64,000 bases of DNA, taken from Emiliania huxleyi CCMP1516 (taxonomy: Eukaryota). The notes beneath the pieces were generated by a model. It made no database searches. It saw only the letters and a program-made list of their open reading frames with translations, and was not told the origin of the DNA. The position numbers were made by a program, and so were the translations under genes. The stretch lies in assembly GCF_000372725.1 (NCBI RefSeq), contig NW_005201154.1, positions 180,843 to 244,842 on the forward strand, in the 5' to 3' direction. Every line of letters starts with the position of its first letter. Position 1 is the first letter of the stretch. This document shows positions 13,471-58,909 of this stretch, one piece after another.

Positions 13471-16400
13471 TCAATTTTCTCGACAGCGCCGCCCACCTGG
13501 CTCTGCGCCTTTGCGGATGTCTTTTGCGCCTGCTGCACGCCCCCGCCGAGCATGCCGAGGGCGGGCCCGATGGAGGCGGGCGAGTCGAGGGAGGAGGTGA
13601 AGAGGAGGAAACCTGTGTGCGCCGGCGAGGCTGTCAGGCAGGGGCTCTCCGGAGGCGGAGACTCTGTGCGGGAAAGAGGGGGAGTGTGGCGGGGGGCGGA
13701 AGGAGCAGGGGGAGTGTGGCGGGGCGGAGGGGGGGCGGGGGGGGGAGGGGGGACCGAGCAGGATGAAGGCTGCGAACATCACCAGCAGCACCAGCCCGGA
13801 GATGACGATCGCGATGATGTCCTGCGTGCGCAGGTTGAGCTCCTTCAGCTTCTGCGCCGCCTTCTTCTTCTCCTGCGAGCCGACGATCATCTGCTGCGCC
13901 TTGAACAGGCCCGCCGCGCCGAGGACGACATACATGCCCGGGCCCGCGAGCAGGCAGAGGAAGGCGATCGCCCTGGCCGGCTTGAGGATGCAGGAGAGGA
14001 CGAGCCTGAGGAGAGAGGGAGGGTGGCGGATCAGAGGCTCCGACTCGCCCGCGTGCGGACGCGCGAGGAGAGGAGGGCGGGCCAGGCGATGATGTTGAAG
14101 CAATACATCGCCGACACCACCCACGTCACGATGAGGAGCAGCTTGGCGGGGAGGCGGACCTGCGGGGAGATGTGGGGAGGTGTGGGGAGACGTGGGGAGA
14201 TATGAGGAGCAGCTTGGCGGGGGGGGGCGGACCTGTCTCGTCATCACCACCGCCATCAGAATGAGAATGAGACTAGGAGCGAGAATAGTGGGAAGCTTGG
14301 CGGGGCGGCGGACCACGGAGGTGACGACGGACATGCCGGGCACGGTGCCCCAGTAGTGCGAGACGAGCCACGCGAGGCAGACGGCGTCCTGCAAAAGTAC
14401 CGGTCCAAGTACCGCTCAAGCTTGCTTCACTACCTAGTTGCGACGCAGAGGCACGCGAGAGGCAGGGTGCGGCGGTCCTTGAGGTGGAAGAACTTGTAGA
14501 TGTCGTCCACCTAACCAGTGCTCCAGTGGACCGGCTTGTTGGCCACCGGCGGGGCGTCCGTCCAGACGGGTGACCTCGTGTCAGTGCAGAGCTGCGCACC
14601 CACTCGCGGTGCAATATAATATAATATAATATAATATAATATAATATAATATAATAGAGCTGCGCGCCCACTCGCGGTGCGTGCAGAGATGTGGGGAGAT
14701 GGGGGAGATATGGGGAGATGTCGCACCCACTCGCGGTGCGTGCAGACGCCCTGGTCGACGAACTCGTCCTGCGCGTGGGGCGTGTCGTGGACGTGTCGTG
14801 GACGTGTCGCGGGGCTAGCTCCCTCGTGCGACGGGCGCGGCTTCCTCGTGTGAGCACGAGAGGAGCAGCCCGAGCAACACGATGGGCGCGCCGCCGAGGG
14901 CGACGAAGCCGACGTGCACGCACGCGGAGATGGCGCCCTGCGTGCGGTCGAGGGCGGTTCTCATTGTTAGTGTGGTATGTCCGTAGTAGTGGTAGTAGTA
15001 AGTAGTAGCAGTAGTTGGTGCTTCCTGCTTGAGGTCGAAGGCCGTCTCGACGGGGTCGGAGAGGACGAAGTCGATGAGAAAGAGAGGCCTGTTCGCAGGA
15101 GCGCGAGCCTGAAGAGAGGCTCTTCGCATCGGACATGACTGAGAGCCGATCACAGAAGCGTCGCCTATCGGCGCGAGCAGGAATGTCCAGCATCCATATG
15201 CCAATGTGTGATGGAGCTCGGGAAGAAAAGAAAGAGGCGCAGCCTCTTCGAGGAGGGGGTTGACCGGGTCCCGGGATGAGGTTGCCCTCCTCGTCGGTGC
15301 GTAGCGACCCCTGCCCCCCCCTTCTTGGTGGCGGCCGAAGGCGTTTGGTTCTCGTCCAAACTTCGGCGAGGGGCCACCTCTTGGGGCCTTCCCCCCTTCA
15401 TNNNNNNNNNNNNNNNNNNNNNNNNNNNNNNNNNNNNNNNNNNNNNNNNNNNNNNNNNNNNNNNNNNNNNNNNNNNNNNNNNNNNNNNNNNNNNNNNNNN
15501 NNNNNNNNNNNNNNNNNNNNNNNNNNNNNNNNNNNNNNNNNNNNNNNNNNNNNNNNNNNNNNNNNNNNNNNNNNNNNNNNNNNNNNNNNNNNNNNNNNNN
15601 NNNNNNNNNNNNNNNNNNNNNNNNNNNNNNNNNNNNNNNNNNNNNNNNNNNNNNNNNNNNNNNNNNNNNNNNNNNNNNNNNNNNNNNNNNNNNNNNNNNN
15701 NNNNNNNNNNNNNNNNNNNNNNNNNNNNNNNNNNNNNNNNNNNNNNNNNNNNNNNNNNNNNNNNNNNNNNNNNNNNNNNNNNNNNNNNNNNNNNNNNNNN
15801 NNNNNNNNNNNNNNNNNNNNNNNNNNNNNNNNNNNNNNNNNNNNNNNNNNNNNNNNNNNNNNNNNNNNNNNNNNNNNNNNNNNNNNNNNNNNNNNNNNNN
15901 NNNNNNNNNNNNNNNNNNNNNNNNNNNNNNNNNNNNNNNNNNNNNNNNNNNNNNNNNNNNNNNNNNNNNNNNNNNNNNNNNNNNNNNNCGGACCTGTGGG
16001 GAGACGGGAGCACACGCCTCCCAGTGCAAGGCGCGGGGAGATGCGAGGAGATGTTGGGAGATGTGTGGCGGATGCGGGGAGATGTGGGGAGATGTGGGGA
16101 GATGTGGGGAGATGTGGGGAGATGTGGGGAGATGGGAGCACACGCCTGCCAGTGGAAGGAGCGGGCGGGACCGACGTACTCCTCCTTGGTGTAGTTGATC
16201 GCCTCCGCCTCGTGCTCGTACGTCATCGCGACGAAGGTGCCTGTTCACAGCTAGAGGTGTGAAGAGACGCTGTTCACAGCCTCGTGGTGACGTTCTTTCG
16301 ACGAAGTTGCCCAGTCGACGTCTCTCCTCCACCTCGGCCTCGCTCTCGCCGTAGACAGACTCGTACGGCGACGCGGCCTACAACCCCAAACCACAACCTC

Positions 16401-18446
16401 GGACGATCTCGGACGATCTCGCCTCGACCTCATTCCACGGCGCGCTAGACTCGCCTCGTCCGCAGCGCCCGCGGCGGTGGCGTTGGTGGTGTTTGCGAGC
16501 GCGCGGAAGGCGACGAAGTCTCCGACCCGGTCCAGCGCCACGAGCAAGTCGTGAGAGACGGCGGCGCCTGTTCGGCCACGCCGCGACTGGTGCATGGAGC
16601 GCGCAACGAGCAAGAGAAATCGTGAGAGACGGTGGCGCCGAGCATGCGCTGGAGCTCTTCCGGCTGCCCGAGGATCGCGTCCTCGGTGCAGAAGTCCGCC
16701 TCGTCGACGTCGATCATGATCTTGCCGAGGCTCGAGCTCATGACGCCTGTGCCGGGGAGATATGGGGAGATATGGGGAGATATGGCTCGAGCTCATGACG
16801 CCTGTGCGCCGGTGTGCGTGCGGGTGGCGTCGAGCGATCCGCTCTCAATGCGAGTGACGCTCTCGCCAGGGAGGGAGGGTGCTAGGGCGGGTGTCGGCTC
16901 GCCTACTCCGTGTCTTCAGCCGCTGAGCTCTCGACTGCATCGATGCTCTTGCCGAGGGCGGGAGGTAAGAGGGCGGGAGGCGAGGGCGGGACCGGAGGCA
17001 AGGGCGGGAGGTAAGGGCGGGAGGTAAGGGCGGGAGGCAAGGGCGGGAGGTAAGAGGGCGGGAGGCAAGGGCGGGAGGTAAGGGCGGGAGGCGAGGGCGG
17101 GAGGTAAGGGCGGGAGGCAAGGGCGGGAGGCAAGGGCGGGAGGTGAGGGCGGGAGGTAAGGGCGGGAGGTGAGGGCGGGAGGTGAGGGCGGGAGGCGAGG
17201 GCGGGAGGCGAGGGCGGGAGGTAAGGGCGGGAGGTAAGGGCGGGAGGCAAGGGCGGGAGGTGAGGGCGGGAGGTAAGGGCGGGAGGTAAGGGCGGGAGGT
17301 AAGGGCGGGAGGCAAGGGCGGGAGGTGAGGGCGGGAGGTAAGGGCGGGAGGTAAGGGCGGGAGGTAAGGGCGGGAGGCAAGGGCGGGAGGTGAGGGCGGG
17401 AGGTGAGGGCGGGAGGTGAGGGGAGGGCATCGGATGTTGCGCCCGCGGTGACAGCGCGGAGGAGGAAGGGCGGGATCCACATCATGATCTTGGACTTGAT
17501 GAGGTAGAGCTCGAGCTGGGGCTCGTCGCGCACCTGCGAGGCGCGGGGCAGAGGGACAGCGAGGATGAGGCACACAAGAGGCAGCAGCGGCGAGGCGAGG
17601 CGGAGAGGCCGCGGCACGGACCCGTGCGTTGAGAAGGGAGGGGCGGCGGGGGGGGGCGGCGGGGGGGAGAGCGGTGCTCGTGTGTTACAGGGCGAGTGTG
17701 TGAGAGAGAAGAGATGAGGCGCACAAAGAGAGCTGCCCTGCACGGAGTTTAGTATGGTGGGGCCCGGGCGAGTGTGGTGTGAGAGAAGAGGTGGGAGGGC
17801 GCACAAAGAGCTGCACGGAATAGTAGTCGTGGACAAAGTGCTCGAGGGCGGCCTTGATGTCGGGCTTGCCCTTGATGTCGTAGAGGGTGAGGTACGACGT
17901 GGACGCACCCTCCCCCTCCTTCTCCCTCTCCGCCGCCGCCGCCTCCTCCTCCTCCTCCTCCTTGTCCGCTTTGAGCGCCCGCCGGCCGAGCAAGTCGAGA
18001 GGGCTGAAGCCCTCGTCGACCTTGGGGAGGACGCGCTTGCCGTTGACGCAGACGTGAGGGTTGTGGTACTTCATCGACAGCTGGATCTGCGCCGAGTCGG
18101 CGTACACGGGCATGTTGGTCCGCAGGTATGGCGCGAGCGCCGTCAAGAGACCGAAGAGCGCGACGGCGATGGCCGTCTTGACGCCGGCCACGAGCGGGTT
18201 GGTGGGGAACATGATGCCAACGCTCGCCGCCGCGCTCGCAATCTTCTTCGACCCCGGCGTCACCGGGACGATCTTGGAGAAGATGTCAGCTGGCCCCGCC
18301 CGCGCCTTTGGCTTGCCAGCCTTGCCGTTGCCCTCATCGAGCACCTGCTGATACCTGACCTTTCCCTGCTCGATGGCTGCCCTTGTGGGGCGCTTGGTGG
18401 CAGGCGGTCGGCGGAGAGCAAGCCCGCCCGGCGTGTCGGTGTACAT
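13471..18446 (-). CDS. Large multi-exon hypothetical membrane protein (one or two genes; 3' end uncertain; spans a gap)
   Basis: Chain of coding-like segments (17.8-18.4k, 17.4-17.5k, 16.1-16.8k, 14.8-15.3k, 13.8-14.4k) with several hydrophobic helices, separated by repeat-filled introns. Confidence 0.5.
16955..17425. repeat. Intronic 12-bp minisatellite (GGGCGGGAGGYR) of about 39 units
   Basis: Directly visible tandem array. Confidence 0.95.
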
Positions 18447-19717: not shown

Positions 19718-21783
19718 TCAGGTCTCGCCCCAACGCGCTCGGAGCGCCTCCGCGGCGCGAAGCAGCCTCTCAGCGATCGGCTCCGCCTCCTCCGCGCTCG
19801 CGAGGCGGCCGTACGAGAGGCGGAGGTGGCCGGGCCGCCCAAAGGCCGAGCCAGGCAGCGTGAGCAGCTCGTGCTCCGCCGCGAGCCGCCGCACCGCCTC
19901 CTCCTCCGCCTCGCAGTCGGCAAGGCGCGAGGCGTGCAGCAGGCCGCTGCGCTCCTCCTCCGCCGCCTCGCCGCCCTCGCCTCCCTCGCCCAGCACCCGG
20001 GCGCCGCGCGAGCTGCAGCCGGGCAGCCTCACAAAGTAGTAGAATGCGCCGGCGGGCTGCAAGGCGCCCCCCCCGCCGCGCAGCGGCGCCAGCGCCTCCC
20101 ACAACATCGCCCGCGCCGGCTCGAGTGTCGCAACCTGAGATATGGGGAGATATGGGGAGACATGGGGAGATATGGCTCGAGCGTCGCAACCTCTCCGTGG
20201 GGTGGCCCAAGAGGTGAGGGTGTCGCGGCGAGGTTCGAGGGAGCTCGCGCGCCGCCGCACTCGCCTGCTGGCGAACCCGATCTCCGCACATCTCCCTCAG
20301 ACCTCTCCTCATCTCCCCACTCGCCTGCTCGCGCACCCACGCCTCGCCGAGCCCTTCCAGCGCCTACTCTCGCGGCCAATCTCGCGTGAATCTCGCGTGA
20401 GCTCCACCCCCCCCGCCTCGCCTCGCCCTTCCCAGCGCCGCGAGGGCGAGTCGCTGCGAGGCGCGGCACGCGTGCGTCGGCATCGTGTCCTGCACCTGCC
20501 CACACGTCCACCGAGATAGGGGGAGACAGGGGGAGAGATGGGGAGAGATGGTGTCCTGCACCTGCCCACACATCCACCACCCATTGCTGCACCAGCCCCC
20601 GCGCGTGCGCGTGGGCGGCGCGTCCCACCGCCTTGAGCATCGCGTCGTGCAATCTCGGGCGATCTCGGGCGATCTCGCGTGATCTCGCGCCTTGAGCATC
20701 GCGTCGTGCAGCTGGTGCGGGTAGGACAGGTGGCCGACCCTCCACGCCGCCAGGCCGTACGACTTTGAGAAGGTGCGCAGGCACAGGAGCAGCTCGCCTC
20801 CGCCCGCCTCGCACAGCTCTGCCGCCGAGGCGTGCTCCGCCGCGCCGTAGGTGAAGTGCTCGTACGCCTCGAGGAGTCATCTCACAGCGTCTCTTCACAC
20901 CTCCAGCTGTGAACAGGCGCGCCGTAGGCGAAGTGCTTGGTACGCCGCGAGGATCATATCACTCGTCGAGGTCAACCAAAGCGGGGGGGAGTGCCGTCGG
21001 CGAAGGTGCGCGCCGCGCCTCGTCCGAGATCAGCCCATATCTCCCCATATCTCCCCACATCTCCCCATATCTCGCGCCTCGTCCGAGATCAGCCACGCGC
21101 CCGCCTGCGGGAACGCTCACGGAACGGCTCATCGTGGAGCCGCACGCCCCGACGGAGGAAGGTACGCGCCGGACCTGCGCGCAGGCCTCGCCCAGCTCTC
21201 GCACGAGCTCAGCCGGGCAGACGGCGCCGGTCGGGTTGCTCGGGGAGACCAGCACCACCGCCCTCAGCCGGCCGCCGGGGCGCGAGGCGGAGGCGCGCAC
21301 GGCGCCGGGCGTCGGCAGGCCTACCCGTAGTGGAGAGCAGAGGCTGCACTGTTGATGGCATTGATGTAGGTCGTGCGTCGGCTCGCCTCGCTCGTCGCAG
21401 TCGGCGAAGACAGGCACAAGGCCGAGGAGCTGAAGCGCGACCAGGTGCGAAAAGTAGTAGGGCCGCCAGAGAAGCACCTCGTCGCCGACGTCACAGGTGG
21501 ACAGCAGCGCGTGCACGAACGCCTGGTTGGCGCCGGGTGTCACCATGACGTGCTCGCGCCCGTGCTCCTCGCGCAGCGCTGCCAGCAGCGCCGGCTCGCC
21601 GCGGATGTCGCCATACCCGCCGTCGCCGCGCAGCGCCGCCTCGACGAGGCGCTCGGGCGGCGACCAGTGCGCCGTCCCAGGCGCGAGGTTGGCGATGCCG
21701 GGACGGAGGTGCGTGGCGATGATGCGCTCGACGATCGCCTCCGAGGCGTTGGCCGCGCGCATGGACGGCCGGAGGCGACGCAT
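19718..21783 (-). CDS. PLP-dependent aminotransferase class I/II, multi-exon
   Basis: VMVTPGANQAF, PYYFSH, VSPSNPTGAV, LISDEAYEHF, TFSKSYGLAAWRVG (PLP lysine), GAFYYFV and LPGSAFG..HLRLSYG. Confidence 0.92.
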
Positions 21784-24239: not shown

Positions 24240-25705
24240 ATGTCCACCCGCCGCGCCGCCGCTCGCGCACCCTCGCCTCCGCCGCCGCCGCCGCCCCCTC
24301 GCCAGTCGCGCCGCCGCCCGCCCGGCTCCTCGACCTCCCCAGGGAGCTCCTCGAGCGCGCCCTCTCCCGCTTCGACAGCCCCGCCGACATCGCTCGCGCC
24401 GCGGCCGTCTCGCTGCTCTTCCACGCCTCGCTAGCGGAGCAGGGCATCCGCTTGTGGGCGCAAGAGCGCGGCTTCGAGCTGCCGCCGCAGCCGGAGGGCG
24501 AGAGCTGCGCCGTGCGGTGGCTGTGCTTCGCCGCGCTCCTGCGCAAGGCCAACCCGCCGGCGAGGGTGTCCGCAGGCGAACGGCACAGCGTCTTCATCGA
24601 CGGCAAGGGGCAGCTCTCGTCGTGCGGGTCAGCGGCAACGGAGGGGGAGGAGGAGGAGGAGGAGGACGAGGAGGAATTACCAGGCCTTCTCGGCCACGGC
24701 GAGGGCGTGACGCGGCTCAACACGCCGACCCGCCTCCCGTCAACGCTGGGTGACGAGCGCGCCGTGAGCGTGTCGGCTGGAGATGGCCACAGCCTCGCCC
24801 TCACCGCCGACGGCGCCGTCTGGAGTTGGGGCGGTGGAGTTTTTGGCAAGTTGGGCCACGGCGACCACGAGACGCAGCTGCTGCCGAAGAGGATCGAGGC
24901 CTTGGCGGGGCGGCGCGTCATCGCTGTGTCGGCTGGAGGCATGCACAGCCTCGCCGTCACCGCCGACGGCAGTGTCTGGAGCTGGGGCCGCGGAGTCTAC
25001 GGCCGGCTGGGCCACGGCGACTATCAGAACACGCTGCTGCCCGAGAAGATCGAGGCCTTGGCTGGCCATCAAGTTGTCGCTGTCTCGGCTGGACTTCACC
25101 ACAGCATCGCCCTTACCATCGACGGCGGCGTCTGGAGCTGGGGCTCTGGAGGCGAAGGCCAGCTTGGCCACGGCGAGTCGCGGAATTGTCAGCTGCTGCC
25201 GAAGAAGGTCGAGGCCTTCGCTGAGCGGCGCGTCGTCGCTGTCTCGGCTGGAGACTTCCACAGCCTCGCCATCACCGCCGACGGCTCTGCTTGGAGCTGG
25301 GGCCATGGATACTCTGGCCAGCTGGGCCACGGCCACTGGCAGCAGCAGCTACTGCCAAAGAAGGTTGAGGCGTTCGCTGGGCGGCGCCTCGTCGCTGTGT
25401 CGGCGGGAGGCGAACACAGCCTCGCCCTCACCGCGGACAGCAGCGTCTGGAGCTGGGGCAGTGGATTGTCGGGCAAGTCGGGCCACGGTGACGAGCAGAA
25501 CCAGCTGCTGCCCAAGAAGATCGAGGCCTTGGCTGGCCAGCGCGTCGTCGCTGTGTTGGCTGGACTCGACCACAGCCTCGCCATCACCGCCGACGACGCT
25601 GTTCATGCTTGGGGCAAGGGCGAGAGCGGCTGCCTTGGCCACGGAGAGGACCTGTCGACCCAGCTGCTGCCCAAGAAGGTCGAGGCGTGGTCGCCGGCGC
25701 CGTGA
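24240..25705 (+). CDS. F-box-like + RCC1-repeat protein, intronless; ATG is out of frame with the main ORF (frameshift near 24270)
   Basis: About 6-7 RCC1 repeats (VSAG..HSLALTADG.VWSWG.G..G.LGHGD). Upstream in frame is LLDLPRELLERALSRFD. Confidence 0.85.
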
Positions 25706-26203: not shown

Positions 26204-27610
26204 ATGGGCCTCCGAGGGAGCGATCGCGTCACCAAGGTGTGTCGTCTCCTCGGCGTTGCGGTGGTGACGCTGACGATGCTTCACGCCGCCAGCAAGCCGG
26301 AGCCGGTTCGCCGCCCGGCGCCGACCATGCTGGAGCACCGGCGCCGCGTGAGCGGCGCCACGTACGCGGCGCGGATACCCCGCGTCGTGCACCAGACGTG
26401 GATGTCCCGCCAGCTGCCTCGCGGCCTCGCCGACTGCGTGCAGACGTGGGTCAAGTCCGGTTGGGAGTGGCGGCTGCACACGGACGCTGACAACTTGGAG
26501 CTCGTCAACGGGTCCTACCCCGCGCTGTTGTCGCTGTACATGTCGCTCCCGCCCGTCGCGCAGGCCGACATCGCGCGCCTCCTCTACATGCACAAGTGGG
26601 GAGGCGCGCGCCGCGGGAACCCGACGCCCGCCGTGCTCGGGACGCCGCGAGCAACACTTCTGTGCAAGGCTTGGTCTAGGCGTGTACGCCGACCTGGACG
26701 TGTGCCGCCTCGAGCCGCTGGACCCGCTGCTCGAGGCGGCGGCCAGCGGCGCAGTGCCATTCGGCGACGGAGGCGGCGACGGAGGCGGAGGCGGCGGCGG
26801 CGCAGGAGGAGGAGGAGGAGGCGGCGGCGGCGGCGGTGGAGCACGAGGCGGCGGGGGCGGGCGGAGCTGCGTGCTCCTTGGGCAAGAGCCGCTCGAGCAC
26901 GCGGTGCTCGTCGAGGGGGTGGGCGAGGACACGTCCAGGACATGGACGCGTCGATGACATGTCCGAGACATGTCTTCAGGTGCTCGTCGAGGGGGTGGCG
27001 AGGCAGGTCTGCAACGCCCTCCTCGTCTCGGAGGCGGGGCACCCCTTCTGGCTCGTCGCGCTCGACGAGGTCGCGGCCCGCTTCCTGCGCGGCGGGGGCG
27101 ACGACCCGGTCGACCTCCACTTGCCCCATGCTCTTCTCGGACCCTTCTCGGACCCTTCCTGGAGCCTTCCTGCAGGTCTACCTCACCGGCCCACGCATGC
27201 TCGAGGCTGCCGTTGTCCGGTGGCACGCCGCTGCGGCTAGGGCGGCCTCCTCTCGCCTCCGCCGCCCTCGGCGCGGAGCCTTCTCGGAGCCTTCCTCGAA
27301 CCTTCCTGTAGGCGGCCTCCTCTCGCCTCCGCCGCCTGGACCCTCGGCCGCCGCGCGAGGACGACGAGGCCCGCCAGCCGCCTTCCCTGTGCATGAGCCG
27401 TCTCGACACCTTGCCCCTGTAGGCTCGTTCGCCCCGCGAGGGCTCCTGCGCGGACTCCGCCGCCGCCGCAGGCTCGCGGCGGCGTGCCCTCTACTTGCGC
27501 AGAGCAAGGGCAAGGGCTGTCCACGAGCCTTCTCCGTACCTTGCTGCAGGCTGCGCCGCGGCAGATGGTGTCGCCGCAGTGGGAAGTCTCCTCTTCCTCC
27601 TCCGCTCTAA
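26204..27610 (+). CDS. Glycosyltransferase family 32 (DXD, OCH1-like), multi-exon; 3' end uncertain
   Basis: N-terminal TM segment, IPRVVHQTW, ADIARLLYMHKWGG|VYADLD, NALLVSEAGHPFW and YLTGPRML. Confidence 0.85.
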   Translation: MGLRGSDRVTKVCRLLGVAVVTLTMLHAASKPEPVRRPAPTMLEHRRRVSGATYAARIPRVVHQTWMSRQLPRGLADCVQTWVKSGWEWRLHTDADNLELVNGSYPALLSLYMSLPPVAQADIARLLYMHKWGGARRGNPTPAVLGTPRATLLCKAWSRRVRRPGRVPPRAAGPAARGGGQRRSAIRRRRRRRRRRRRRRRRRRRRRRRRRWSTRRRGRAELRAPWARAARARGARRGGGRGHVQDMDASMTCPRHVFRCSSRGWRGRSATPSSSRRRGTPSGSSRSTRSRPASCAAGATTRSTSTCPMLFSDPSRTLPGAFLQVYLTGPRMLEAAVVRWHAAAARAASSRLRRPRRGAFSEPSSNLPVGGLLSPPPPGPSAAARGRRGPPAAFPVHEPSRHLAPVGSFAPRGLLRGLRRRRRLAAACPLLAQSKGKGCPRAFSVPCCRLRRGRWCRRSGKSPLPPPL

Positions 27611-31608: not shown

Positions 31609-34600
31609 TCACTGCTGCCGTTGGCGCGGCGCGCACTGCACGATATCGTCGACGCGCAGGATCATCTCGGCCGCCTCGGAGGAGGAGAGGAGCACCTGCT
31701 CCTTGACCTGCGGCGGGAGACGTGCCGAGATTGAGCCGCGATTGAGCCGAGATTGAGCCGAGATGAGCTGTGCCCCCGCCCAGGCCTGCAGCGACTCGCA
31801 GATGCCGAGGGCAACCATGTCGCCCAGCCCGCCGCGGTCCATCTCGAGGCCCCACGTGTGGCGCCCCTCGTGGTGCTTCGCCTGCTCCTCACACAGGTCC
31901 AGCCGTGAAGAGACGCCGGAAGGTGCGCTGCACCCCCCCCCCCCCCCTTCTCGGTGGCTCGCCTTGAGGCCGGCGCACAGCTCAGTCGAGTCGTAGCCCG
32001 CGTTGTCCGCGATGTGCATCGGCATCGTGCGCAGCGCCTTTGCGTACGCCTCCATCGCAACGACGTGCTTCGAGGCGACCCGCTTCGACTCCTCCTCCAC
32101 CGCCTGCGCCATCAGCATCTCTGGCGCGCCTCCGCCCGGCAGCACGGCCGTATTCTTGACCTGTTCACACCCTGCAGGTGTGAGCAGCGTCTCTTCACAG
32201 CGGCAGCACGGCCGTGTTCTTGACCGTCTGCGAGAGGACGCAGAGCGCGTCGTGCAGCGAGCGGTGCGCCTCGTCCACCACCAGATCAATTAATATTTAA
32301 TTAGTAGTTAATTATAGTTAATTAACAGTGCGCCTCGTCCACCACGTGCGTGTTGGCGCCGCGCAGCACGATCGACGAAGCCTGTGAGTTTGGGCAGCCA
32401 GAGAAGCGGACCAGCTTGTCCTCCCCAATCATCACTTCCTCGATGAGCTCGCACGAACCTACGCGCTGAATACGCCGACCTCAGGGCGGGAAGACAATAT
32501 TGTGCAGTGTGTTCAGAGCACCGCGTGAGTACAACGGAGAGGGAGACAGTGAATACAGCGGAGTACGGCCGAATACGGCTGAGTGCGTGTCCTCTCGAGC
32601 GCTGGTTGGGAGACAAGAGCCCGTCTTCCGCTTCTGGGCGCACGAGCCGAGCTTGACGCGCTCGGGCGTGTCGAAGGTCGAGACGATGTCGCCGTCGAGC
32701 ACGAGCGCGAGCCGCTCGGTGCCGTCAAAGTCCGAGTGCTCGATCGACCTACAGGAAGGTTCCAGGAAAGGTCTAGGAAAGGTCCTCGCGGTGCCGTCAA
32801 AGTCCGAGTGCTCGATCGACATGACTCCCGCGTCGGCGAAGCGCTGCTCGGGCAGGTTGTAGATGAGCTGCCTGTGGGGGGAGATATGGGGAGATATGGA
32901 GGTTGTAGATGAGCTGCCTGCTCTCGTCGGGGGAAGGAGCGAGTGGCCACTCTGAAGGCAGAAGGCGCCGCCAGAAGCGAGGAGCGGGCTGTAGCCGCCG
33001 GTGAAGAGACGTCTCGCCTCTCGGCTACACCCCCCGCCCTCTCTGTGCTACAGCTGCACCGGTTGATGAAGACGTTGCACCCGTGGGCGAGTATCTTGTC
33101 CACCTGGGCGAGAGAGTGGGGAGAGGTGGGGAGAGAGTGGGGAGAGAGGGGGCGAGGACCCTGTCCACACCTTGTCGAGCATCTTCTTCTTCTCGGCCGC
33201 CTCGATCTCCGCGACCTTGGAGACGGAGTCCACCTTGACCTTGGAGCCGTAGATCTTGACTTTGTCCGTGTCCATCGGCGAGTTGGCAATCATCACCTTG
33301 CAGTCGCGCATCCGCTTGGGGCAGCCGACGCCGATCTTCTTGTCGAGCAGGAAGCCTATAATTAATTACTATAATTAACTACTAATTAAATATTAATTGA
33401 TCTTCTTGTCGAGCAGGAAGCCGTCGGGGTCGAGGTACGAGTCCTTGAGCGTGCCTGGGAGAGGGGGAGGGAGGGGGAGGGAGGGGGAGATGGGAAGCCG
33501 TCGGGGTCGAGGGACGGGAGTCCTTGAGCGTGCCTGCAGCCGAGACATGGCCGAGGTGCGGCCGAGGTGCGGCCGAGGTGCGGCCGAGACATGGCCGAGG
33601 TGCGGCCGAGGTGCGGCCGAGGTGCGGCCGAGGTGCGGCCGAGACATGGCCGAGGTGCGGCCGAGGTGCGGCCGAGGTGCGGCCGAGGTGCGGCCGAGGT
33701 GCAGCCGAGGTGCAGCCGAGATGCGGCCAAGAGCATGGCCGAGAGACATGGCCGAGAGACATGGCCGAGAAGGTGCGGGCCGAGGGGCGGGTCGTGGTGG
33801 AGCGTGCCTCCTATCCGCTTGATGATTTGGATCTGGTCGAGGTTGGTCGAGCCTCGCAGCTTCATCACCGCGTCGACGGCGATGGCGGCGAAGTGCTCCT
33901 TGTCCTGAGAGAGCACCTTGGACGAGAGAGTTGTCATCGCGATGTTGAGGAGGTCTTGCCGGAAGGCAGCCTGCAGCACACGCAGAGACGGAGAGTCACG
34001 AGACCTCGCCCCTCCCCCCCCCCCTCCCCTTGCCGCAAGGATCCCGCGCGGCACGCCTCGTCGTCCGAGTGGTCGATCGTATCTCCCCATATCTCCCCGT
34101 ATCTCCCCGTATCTCCCCATATCTCCCCATATCTCCCGCCTCGTCGTCCGAGTGGTCGATCGCCGCGGCGCGCAGCGCCTTGAGGGCAGCGTCCCTCGCG
34201 AGCCGGTAGCCTCCGATGACGACCTGTCGAGGGACGTGCCGAGGGACACGTGTCGTGGAGATGTCGTGGAGATGTCGTGGAGATGTCGTGGAGATGTCGT
34301 GGAGATGTCGTGGAGATGTCGTGGAGATGTCGTGGAGATGTCGTGGCGCCGCTCGACGAGGCGGGCGGGGGGCGGGGGCGGGGGGAGGGGGGAGGGGGGA
34401 AGGGGGGGGGGGGGGGGCTGCCTGCGGGTGCATCTTCTTCTCGATGAGCTCGGCCGCCTGGCGGAGCAGCTCCCCCGCCAGCACGCAGACTGAGGTGGTC
34501 CCGTCGCCGACCTCGTCGTCCTGCACCTTTGAGATGTCGATGAGCACCTAGAGACATGTCCCGGACATGTCATGGGCGTGTCCTGGACATCCTGCACCTT

Positions 34601-35241
34601 TGAGATGTCGATGAGCACCTTTGCGGCGGGGTTGTCGATGAGCACCGACTTGAGGATCGTCGCGCCGTCGTTTGTGACCGAGACCGACCCGCCGCGCGAG
34701 TGCGACTGCAGGATCTTGTCCATCCCTTTCGGACCGAGCGACGTCTTGACAAGGTCGGCGATGGCGAGCGCCCCGACGATGGAGGACTGCGAGGGGGAGA
34801 TATGGGGGGAGATTTGGAGGACGGCGAGACGAGGCGTGCGCAGGAGGCGTGCGAGGCGAGGCGAGGGCAGAGATGGCCCACACGCGTGCGCAGCGAGGCG
34901 AGAACAGAGGCGTGGCGGCGGGGGCAGGAGGCAGGAGACGTAGGCAGGAGATGTGCAGGCGGCGGGAGAAGGCAGAGAGGGGTGGGCAGACGGCGGGGGT
35001 CGCCGGGACGGGCGGGAGGAGCGCGGGTCGTCGGGAGAGGACGTGAGGCCAGGCCGGCCCGCCCACGCGAGCCACCTCGACGTGAGAGCCTTGGCGGGCG
35101 GCAAGGCGGCAGGCGGCGGGCGAGTGGCGTGAGAGTGGGAGGAGTAGAGGCGACTGTGCGCACCATGCGGGCTTGCTCGCCCTTGGCCTCCTGCGAGCCC
35201 TCTCCGAAGAGGTTCACCGGTCCAAGCGAAGGGCCCATCAT
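31609..35241 (-). CDS. CCT2: T-complex protein 1 subunit beta (CCT chaperonin), more than 12 introns
   Basis: [70 protein letters not shown] and [19 protein letters not shown]. Confidence 0.97.
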
Positions 35242-52996: not shown

Positions 52997-53128
<132 letters not shown>

Positions 53129-53914
53129 GTACGGGATGGCCAAGCTCGCGAGCCTGTCCTGGCGCTGGACATGTCCACGACACTTCCCTGACATGTCCCA
53201 CAGGTACGGGATGGCCGAGCTCGCAAACCTGGCCTTCGCGGCCGAGCTGGCGCGGCGGCAGGGCGGGGCGCTGCTCTCGTCTGCGGTCCACTCCGGGGCG
53301 TCGCGGCGAGCGAGATATGTACCCGAGATACACCCGAGATGCACCCGAGATATAGGTCCACCCGGGCGTCGTGGCAAGCGACATGCTCCGGCGCGGCAAC
53401 TTCGAGGCGATGCTTGGGCGGCGGCTCGGCAGCCTCCCCGCCGAGAGATGGCCGAGAGATGGCCGAGAGATGGCCGAGAGATGGCCGAGAGATGGCCGAG
53501 GTTCGTATGGCTCCGCGGCTCGGCAGCCTCCCCGCCGGCCTGGCGATTTCGAAGAGGCGGCGGGCGCGTGTCTGAGTCGAGTGTCTGAGCCGTCCCCGGG
53601 AGTGCCTCGCGTCACAGGAAGTCACAGGTGGCCTCGCCTGGCAGCTGGCGCAGGCGCGGAACGGGCTCTTCGCCTACTCGACCGAGCAGGCGGCGCTCAC
53701 GGTTCTCTTCCCGGCGGTGGCGCCCGAGCTGGCGGGGCGGGCCGACTCGCCGGGAGGGAACGGGCGGCTCTTCGTGCCGGTCGCGACGCCGTGGGAGCCG
53801 CGCCACCCAATGGCAACCGACGAGGCGTTTGGGGCGGCGCTGTGGGGTTTTAGCGAGTGCGTCGTGGCGGGCCGTGCGCACGATTGCAACCGCCGCGCGC
53901 CGCCGCCGCTATGA
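53129..53914 (+). pseudogene. Short-chain dehydrogenase/reductase (retinol dehydrogenase-like) C-terminal exons; N-terminus not found
   Basis: YGMA(K/E)[34 protein letters not shown] and ALWGFSE. Confidence 0.7.

Positions 53915-54235: not shown

Positions 54236-58909
<4,674 letters not shown>

Follow-up and report, generated by a model that had tools for sequence, protein, structure and literature searches.

Evidence for two-part introns made of an exon duplicate and a dispersed 40-nucleotide unit in Emiliania huxleyi

It has long been an open question how new spliceosomal introns originate, and the latest survey left about 72% of introner elements unclassified (PMC12130899). Here we analyze a stretch of 64,000 nucleotides (nt) from the marine alga Emiliania (Gephyrocapsa) huxleyi CCMP1516 (contig NW_005201154.1, positions 180,843 to 244,842; hereafter the window, which is eukaryotic and 65% GC), in which copies of a 40-nt unit are dispersed. 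Among the closest described systems are introners of Symbiodinium and of Polarella (classes 4-6, 8, and 10) in which, as here, the target-site duplication (TSD) gives the donor and the element carries the acceptor (PMC9860276, bioRxiv 10.1101/2020.10.14.339549). These classes also use GC and GA donors, some work in both orientations, and many have terminal inverted repeats, with TSDs fixed at 4–8 nt (3–9 bp across families). By contrast, the duplicate in E. huxleyi varies between 18 and 46 nt and accounts for about 40% of intron length. In Daphnia, new introns that are polymorphic in populations repeat the end of the neighboring exon directly (Li et al. 2014, PMC4202315); there the repeats measure 4–12 bp and few sources of the inserts are identified, whereas in E. 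huxleyi they are longer and one family occurs at many sites. Two further models (Yenerall and Zhou 2012, PMC3443670) each recall a part of what we describe: intron transposition resembles a metagenome site, L060, with a whole intron in an unrelated gene, and tandem genomic duplication resembles antisense copies that use an AG|GY inside the duplicate. Under neither model would a local duplicate come to lie next to a tail common to many sites.

Anatomy of the introns

The unit is very likely the shared back end of introns of about 70 nt that are fronted by a copy of the start of the next exon, here called the echo. At two window sites, 16241 and 32161, the duplicate gives the donor, the unit gives the acceptor, and the whole stretch is spliced (Table 1). 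A sequence check recovered the five unit copies of the initial annotation with identical coordinates, strands, and mismatch counts (chance expectation ~2.5 × 10−9 for a 33-mer with up to three mismatches), together with the 11-nt terminal direct repeat, the GTGAA/TTCAC inverted repeats, and the variant with an inverted first hairpin at 32161–32200 (minus strand). That annotation had proposed a short, dispersed family of intron-forming inserts that provides the acceptor between echoed exon copies, which is borne out by 114 metagenome sites and by splicing in RNA and proteins. The echoes it had described elsewhere are present, but they are the main feature and not a side case, and the 30-nt echo at 16281–16310 had been missed.

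At 16241, the 40-mer had been read as a complete intron. However, an RNA contig (X14 record 8; region 15995–16950) covers 16453–16568, 16308–16375, and 16145–16237 and joins 16308 to 16237 without letters between, so that 70 nt are skipped at the unit; with a 3-nt ambiguity, the intron corresponds to 16310–16241 and has GC..AG ends. In X11, the RNA pieces end at 16312 and 16237. All six proteins that span the site, among 15 fetched from a 23-member cluster, read RRRLGTFVAM; one member of this cluster bears the name E. huxleyi. The 40-nt cut is in frame as the initial annotation held, but the RTSPRG join it would produce occurs in none of the six, and an AG|GC directly before the unit, also part of that interpretation, is found in only 2 of 102 metagenome copies. 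It is thus scarcely credible that either the 40-mer or its internal 37-nt GT..AG (unit positions 4–40, present in 90 of 102 copies with a mean GC content of 54.2%) is spliced as a complete intron: for all the in-frame cut at 16241 and the frequency of the 37-mer, RNA and proteins give 70 nt at this site and 64 nt at 32161, and removal of 40 nt leaves the frame open without a stop in only 17 of 66 sense copies, removal of 37 nt in 16 of 66. Assembled contigs lose rare forms, so that minor use of a 40- or 37-nt cut may escape them.

The copy at 32161 lies in a gene for CCT-beta, an exon of which (33171–33356) is 100% identical to a CCMP1516 protein and 90% identical to Coccolithus. Aligning a transcript-derived protein (P0002) gave one solution, a 64-nt intron made of a 24-nt echo and the variant unit; RNA X11 record 9 skips the same 64 nt, and 10 of 10 spanning proteins (of 15) agree. 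The 68-nt echo-plus-unit stretch at 57946–58013, noted earlier as an intron, is real as sequence (20/20 match), and the intron there is predicted.

We then searched metagenome contigs with a 22-nt core pattern (unit positions 17–38). At least 121 loci were found (~130 estimated), and 131 matches represented 114 distinct sites, 102 of which, with one duplicate pair (L022/L071) left among them, had enough flank for analysis; the 80 listed loci come from five assemblies. An upstream echo of the downstream sequence (≥15/20 nt) was detected at 75 of 102 sites, compared to 1.0% of 2040 mismatched pairs, and at 80 of 102 with a gapped score. Of these 80 echoes, 54 begin at a G|GC or G|GT junction, for which the background is 5.3%, and 63 have GC or GT as their first bases. 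Echo and unit together measure 64–74 nt at 66 of 75 sites, with no multiple-of-three rule (31, 21, and 23 sites by length modulo three). Across 47 sites with clean junctions, the echo part spans 18–46 nt, the unit part 29–49 nt, and the total 59–84 nt, which is tighter than expected from independent parts (standard deviation 4.6 vs. 7.8, rho −0.72); the correlation between echo and unit length is weaker over all 78 non-tandem sites (rho −0.22, p-value 0.053). Exon identity of the echo drops to background beyond ~35 nt, and 31 of 67 echoes are perfect over positions 3–18. At L016, L017, L040, and window position 55829, the start of the echo abuts an apparent older acceptor, which places two acceptors ~60–77 nt apart.

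Table 1. Unit copies, echoes, and related introns in the window
Feature	Coordinates	Strand	Remarks
40-nt unit, exact	16241..16280	-	Provides the AG acceptor and 3' portion of the 70-nt intron
Decayed echo of downstream exon start	16281..16310	-	GC donor (G|GC); 15/20 match to next exon's start; 70 nt skipped in RNA; proteins
Exon copy of duplicated target	16207..16240	-	
Variant unit, first hairpin inverted	32161..32200	-	Acceptor of a 64-nt CCT-beta intron; RNA and proteins
24-nt echo with GT donor	32201..32224	-	Exon copy at 32137–32160
Unit, 3 mismatches	57974..58013	+	Predicted acceptor of a 68-nt intron
Echo	57946..57973	+	25 nt identical to exon copy from 58014; predicted donor G|GC
Unit, 1 mismatch	55857..55896	+	Predicted new acceptor
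Echo	55829..55856	+	Begins directly behind an older pyrimidine tract and AG
5'-shortened unit, 33 nt, 1 mismatch	20884..20916	+	Antisense to an aminotransferase gene (PF00155 on minus-strand exon)
~44-nt duplication spanning existing acceptor of minus-strand gene	20840..20883	+	Other copy ~20917–20962
66-nt CCT-beta intron	33356..33421	-	Same plan, different AT-rich filler; missing in three DNA runs
81-nt CCT-beta intron	31882..31962	-	Possible decayed echo and decayed unit core (31905–31918); weak: nhmmer E 0.15, echo score below null

Extent, ends, and orientation of the family

No exact core match was found in viral contigs or in prokaryote genomes. Field metagenomes contain the same sites as the window (L065 is the 16241 site and L014 the 20884 site), and the unit is spliced in RNA; together with the absence of viral and prokaryote matches, this disposes of the vector or adapter origin that had been named as a way in which the initial annotation could fail. 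Copy number likely amounts to thousands per genome as an order of magnitude, as pointed to by four copies in the window and eight further unit matches in 52,957 flank bases of the metagenome sites, two samples that both lean high. Summed contig depth in a DNA run (X2), which is not a copy number, reaches 598,954 over the unit against ~106 beside it. Loose contig ends from this run stack at 16238–16240 and 16278–16280 with unlike flanks (agreement 0.41–0.51), which indicates that the unit is bounded and has no common parent. Likewise, an all-against-all comparison of flanks revealed, among the matches listed, only other short repeats and repeated sites in common; a rare longer parent element is compatible with both data sets. 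There was no Rfam match in the window, and the unit folds no better than shuffled sequences (z −1.3; −1.75 to 0.45 for six sequences).

The two ends of the unit differ in conservation. At the 3' end, A39 is present in 112 of 113 copies and G40 in 110 of 112, although the search pattern includes neither position, and the base that follows is G in 107 of 112. The 5' end is looser, with positions 1–3 conserved in 82, 68, and 95 of 114 copies. The first arm of L108 is a perfect 24-nt palindrome, likely a fold-back product.

By codon score, 66 of 85 sites (80 loci sites and five window sites) are sense, 10 antisense, and 9 unclear. This score, trained on CCT-beta, is crude and errs with intronic flanks, calling window 55857 and several tandem copies antisense. 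Three sites are clearly antisense, L079, L081, and L014. In L079 and L081, the unit is followed by C, and an AG|GC or AG|GT lies inside the duplicate; in L014, the duplicate contains an existing acceptor, and the copy at 20840–20883 retains the working acceptor of the minus-strand aminotransferase gene. All three end at the same base within 2 nt, though their AG has no role in splicing. That antisense sites keep the duplicate argues that it is intrinsic to insertion, with splice sites recruited as chance allows.

Set against described categories, the family resembles introners in that similar sequence occurs in at least four unrelated genes (114 distinct sites with diverse flanks) and in that the insertion is spliced out and the message restored at two sites, from RNA contigs and proteins. 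Similarity within 10 intronic bases of both splice sites is lacking, the 5' 18–46 nt being site-specific, and only the pair L060/L069 has it. The duplication is not the fixed short TSD of a miniature inverted-repeat transposable element (MITE) and varies as in short interspersed nuclear elements (SINEs) and elements without long terminal repeats (non-LTR); the poly(A) or simple-repeat tail and the tRNA-, 5S-, or 7SL-derived head of SINEs are absent from the unit alignment. A direct repeat of the adjacent exon end, as in Daphnia, is seen at 80 of 102 sites, but is longer than 4–12 bp. The exon copy covers only ~35 nt, unlike in an intron born by tandem duplication. Taken together, the unit family works like an introner that carries its acceptor and borrows its donor, while lacking similarity at both ends and every transposon hallmark tested other than a variable duplication. 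Target-primed retrotransposition of non-LTR elements leaves a fixed 3' end, TSDs of variable length, occasional inversions, and a ragged 5' end where the junction often shows a short match. Unlike these elements, the unit has no tail, tRNA-like head, or open frame, and no partner was found in the data covered.

Templates and mechanism

Some copies carry pieces of other genes' introns. On the 5' side of its unit, L060 has an echo that matches an exon of L069 without a difference over 27 nt; a weak Pfam hit (E 0.016) labels that exon as phosphodiesterase-like. The 69 nt common to both sites run from the first GT to the last AG of L069, include none of the donor's upstream exon, and match the downstream exon of L060 itself for only 3 nt. 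L060 has no echo of its own. There the 69 nt interrupt an unrelated open frame of 164 + 121 codons, which unspliced meets a stop at residue 173; the two halves are taken as one gene from the open frame alone, with no Pfam match for the protein and no usable Atlas hit for the first exon. To be an assembly join, L060 would have to combine two mis-joins, one without a shared repeat. Next to the unit, L098 shares ~26 nt with L115 and L109 shares 16 nt with L118, compared to at most 11 in five offset controls. An echo shared by L007 and L009 was not counted, since L009 may have been mis-joined at the unit during assembly. Only these few long pairs stand: sub-family 5' extensions in general did not exceed controls. 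Foreign echoes in some copies and a whole foreign intron in one suggest that existing introns are likely templates.

The reading we favor, with a confidence slightly short of even, is that new members arise by target-primed reverse transcription of an existing intron's RNA into a staggered DNA break in an exon. Two nicks would open 20–45 nt apart, and the first would prime copying at the AG end of the template, helped by a G-G-C/T match. Copying would run 5'-ward and usually stop at the first hairpin's foot, ~40 nt on, or sometimes end further on, in the donor's echo or at the donor's first base. The echo would then result when the new strand is joined to the second nick and the gap is filled in. 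Selection would keep inserts that are spliced exactly, with GC or GT at the start of the duplicate or, for antisense copies, AG|GY inside it, and would also want ~60 nt or more in total. A duplicate that varies between 18 and 46 nt implies two nicks this far apart and subsequent fill-in, as is well established from both staggered breaks and target-primed reverse transcription. The fixed AG end, the looser 5' end, the sense bias, the inversions, and the one exact whole-intron copy favor an intron-RNA template, and first arms that are inverted (window 32161) or palindromic (L108) are consistent with a switch of template while copying is under way.

Several observations weigh against this reading. 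Every DNA-level feature also fits DNA-templated repair, and the exact ends of L060 can be explained by a 3-nt match and selection. Because the search pattern covered positions 17–38, 3'-shortened copies could not be found, so that the asymmetry of the ends is partly by design. Twenty-two of 102 copies have no significant echo of their own, and most carry no foreign echo: runs of at least 4 nt directly 5' of the unit are shared by 1.1% of pairs, and controls reach 0.6% and 1.0%. Antisense copies exist, and the other fillers described below stand in either orientation and have no AG of their own. Echo and unit divergence (8.8% and 6.5%) are uncorrelated (rho 0.12, p-value 0.35, n = 67), so that comparing the two provided no age clock. 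Reverse transcription does not explain this missing age correlation, the stop near 40 nt, or why copies are scarce away from G|GY sites. The data covered, which fall short of a whole genome, yielded neither a reverse transcriptase nor a parent element nor a tail.

The strongest competitor, quite possible though less probable in our view, involves no RNA step: fill-in and bridging synthesis would close a staggered double-strand break, with a genomic copy of the unit, frequently one in a tandem echo-plus-unit array, as the template. Such repair covers the variable duplication, the junction matches, the insertion in either orientation, and the many 10–11-mer fillers, and possible array templates are common (tandem echo-plus-unit repeats at 8 of 102 sites; unit-spacer-unit contigs in X2 at depth 402–1824 vs. 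106), with the tandem locus L115 as the likely source of L098. Staggered-break introns are known from Daphnia, albeit with repeats of 4–12 bp and inserts of which few sources are identified (PMC4202315). By itself, repair accounts neither for the fixed AG end of antisense copies, nor for an exact single copy of a whole intron in L060, nor for the scarcity outside G|GY sites, given that G follows in 107 of 112 copies. An exact AG end, a G|GY target, and sense orientation would all be predicted if the spliceosome joined the 3' end of a lariat to single-stranded DNA at G|G and a downstream nick on the other strand primed copying, thereby making the echo; reverse splicing into R-loops was proposed earlier (PMC10996645), but we consider this partial form unlikely.

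A two-step history, in which an exon tandem duplication of ~70 nt came first and a later conversion or insertion replaced the 3' part of the duplicate with the unit, seems a shade less likely again. It would suit the total length being tighter than its parts, the decayed echo beside a perfect unit at 16241, and the missing age correlation, yet it needs two events at each of 80 sites and is at odds with the 31 of 67 echoes that are perfect over positions 3–18, with exon identity at background past ~35 nt, and with L060, which has no echo of its own. A miniature DNA transposon moved by a transposase is very improbable. The sharp ends with diverse flanks in X2 would fit such a MITE-type introner, and most classified introners are of that kind (PMC12130899); however, terminal inverted repeats are absent, the termini being direct repeats and the inverted repeats internal, and the ragged 5' end, the foreign echoes carried along, and above all a duplication that varies between 18 and 46 nt are unlike the product of a transposase cut.

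Other fillers, earlier listings, and significance

The echo-plus-filler plan is general and extends beyond the 40-nt unit, with other fillers of ~40 nt sharing it. A census of the window revealed echoes of ~18–33 nt around several other fillers of ~35–50 nt, mostly 10–11-nt repeats in either orientation, and of the 14 CCT-beta introns mapped with P0002, 7 score better against the exons beside them than the best of 156 nulls. The CCT-beta intron at 33356–33421 is skipped in DNA runs X9, X10, and X7, with neighboring introns kept in the contig of X9; by our reasoning, assembly collapse is ruled out since its 24-nt repeat is too short at 31-letter words. A 72-nt intron (32749–32820) that likewise appeared to be skipped in an X10 contig was not counted, its 32-nt echo being long enough for collapse. 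At 32161–32224, the intron is carried by X9 and X10; X7 record 15 ends at 32136, the same point as the spliced RNA contig (depth counted at 32220), a hint of a possible empty allele if our guess as to the kind of run X7 is holds.

Further repeats of this type were seen in the window. The same AT-rich filler of ~42 nt, with local echoes, makes up two CCT-beta introns (32264–32345 and 33333–33421), the first being present, with changes, in the DNA runs, unlike 33356–33421. Two more filler families consist of 11-nt repeats and occur at three sites each between echoes of 18–35 nt (32717–32820, 27241–27336, and 56443–56526; 34519–34620, 26903–26998, and 53126–53235). Arrays of the 10-nt ATCTCCCC type lie at 14131, 14667, 16729, 20485, 21014, 34054, and 47387, in both orientations between echoes of 21–33 nt, with splice sites apparently supplied from within the duplicate. 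In the gene that holds the 16241 copy, a 71-nt echo-plus-filler stretch (16549–16639, minus strand) has a filler ending in GAACAG like the unit, and an intron contains a 13-nt unit repeated 35 times (16955–17427). The 189-nt CCT-beta intron at 32459–32647 includes a longer repeat (summed depth 25,000–77,000 in X9 vs. ~126), similar sequence of which stands in the flanks of L069, L079, L118, and L119, possibly another family. Outside these introns, 24770–25686 comprises about five coding repeats of 156 nt, which we take to resemble RCC1 repeats.

The unit family has probably already been listed in two introner surveys, mostly with wrong intron ends, judging from a comparison of descriptions and not of sequences. 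Gozashti 2022 (PMC9860276, Supplementary Table 6) has five CCMP1516 families with TSD given as "?" or N, three with a mean length of 37 nt (308, 138, and 30 copies; 57.2, 54.0, and 55.4% GC; mostly GT) and two of 70 nt (158 and 19 copies). The GC content of family 4, 54.05%, compares to 54.2% for unit positions 4–40. Gozashti 2025 (PMC12130899, Dataset S2) lists fam4, with 45 copies, splice columns 113–150, and a 4-nt "TSD" at 117–120/147–150 that falls where the unit's own ACAG repeat would, and fam24, with five copies, "10bp terminal direct repeats", a co-opted 5' and a carried 3' splice site. In the rows of these tables, TSDs are "?", N, 2, or 4 and classes Unknown or LTR, with no 20–45-nt duplication, and the main texts do not name huxleyi. 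The 2022 survey retains only introns that are alike near their two splice sites, a filter that true echo-plus-unit introns do not pass. Old E. huxleyi gene models reportedly favor GT wrongly (PMC4028052) and err at intron ends (PMC10290126), and the 37-nt GT-AG introns in them are probably mis-bounded. A literature search exclusive of Read et al. 2013, the introner sequence and GitHub files, and the bioRxiv supplements yielded no description of long exon duplications in E. huxleyi introns, and the available portions of PMC10996645, PMC3443670, PMC13518057, PMC11282704, and bioRxiv 10.1101/2020.10.14.339549 and 10.1101/2024.05.26.595999 describe no such echoes.

Surveys that require similarity at the two ends of an intron overlook this plan and may count too few gains of this kind in other genomes. 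Each of these introns records its own making, the echo marking the insertion site and a carried-over echo the donor gene, so that chains of donors and recipients, and RNA versus DNA as template, are testable from existing genomes and reads. More speculatively, spliced-out introns of this alga may act as transposase-free retroelements, their tails or whole copies being written into staggered exon nicks, with the 20–45-nt duplication as the new donor and each new intron as a template in turn. The 40-mer would then be the most recognizable of many tails, and the process might have made a large share of the alga's introns along with its majority of GC donors (56–65%, PMC4028052), which could result from the donor being whatever GC or GT the exon held.

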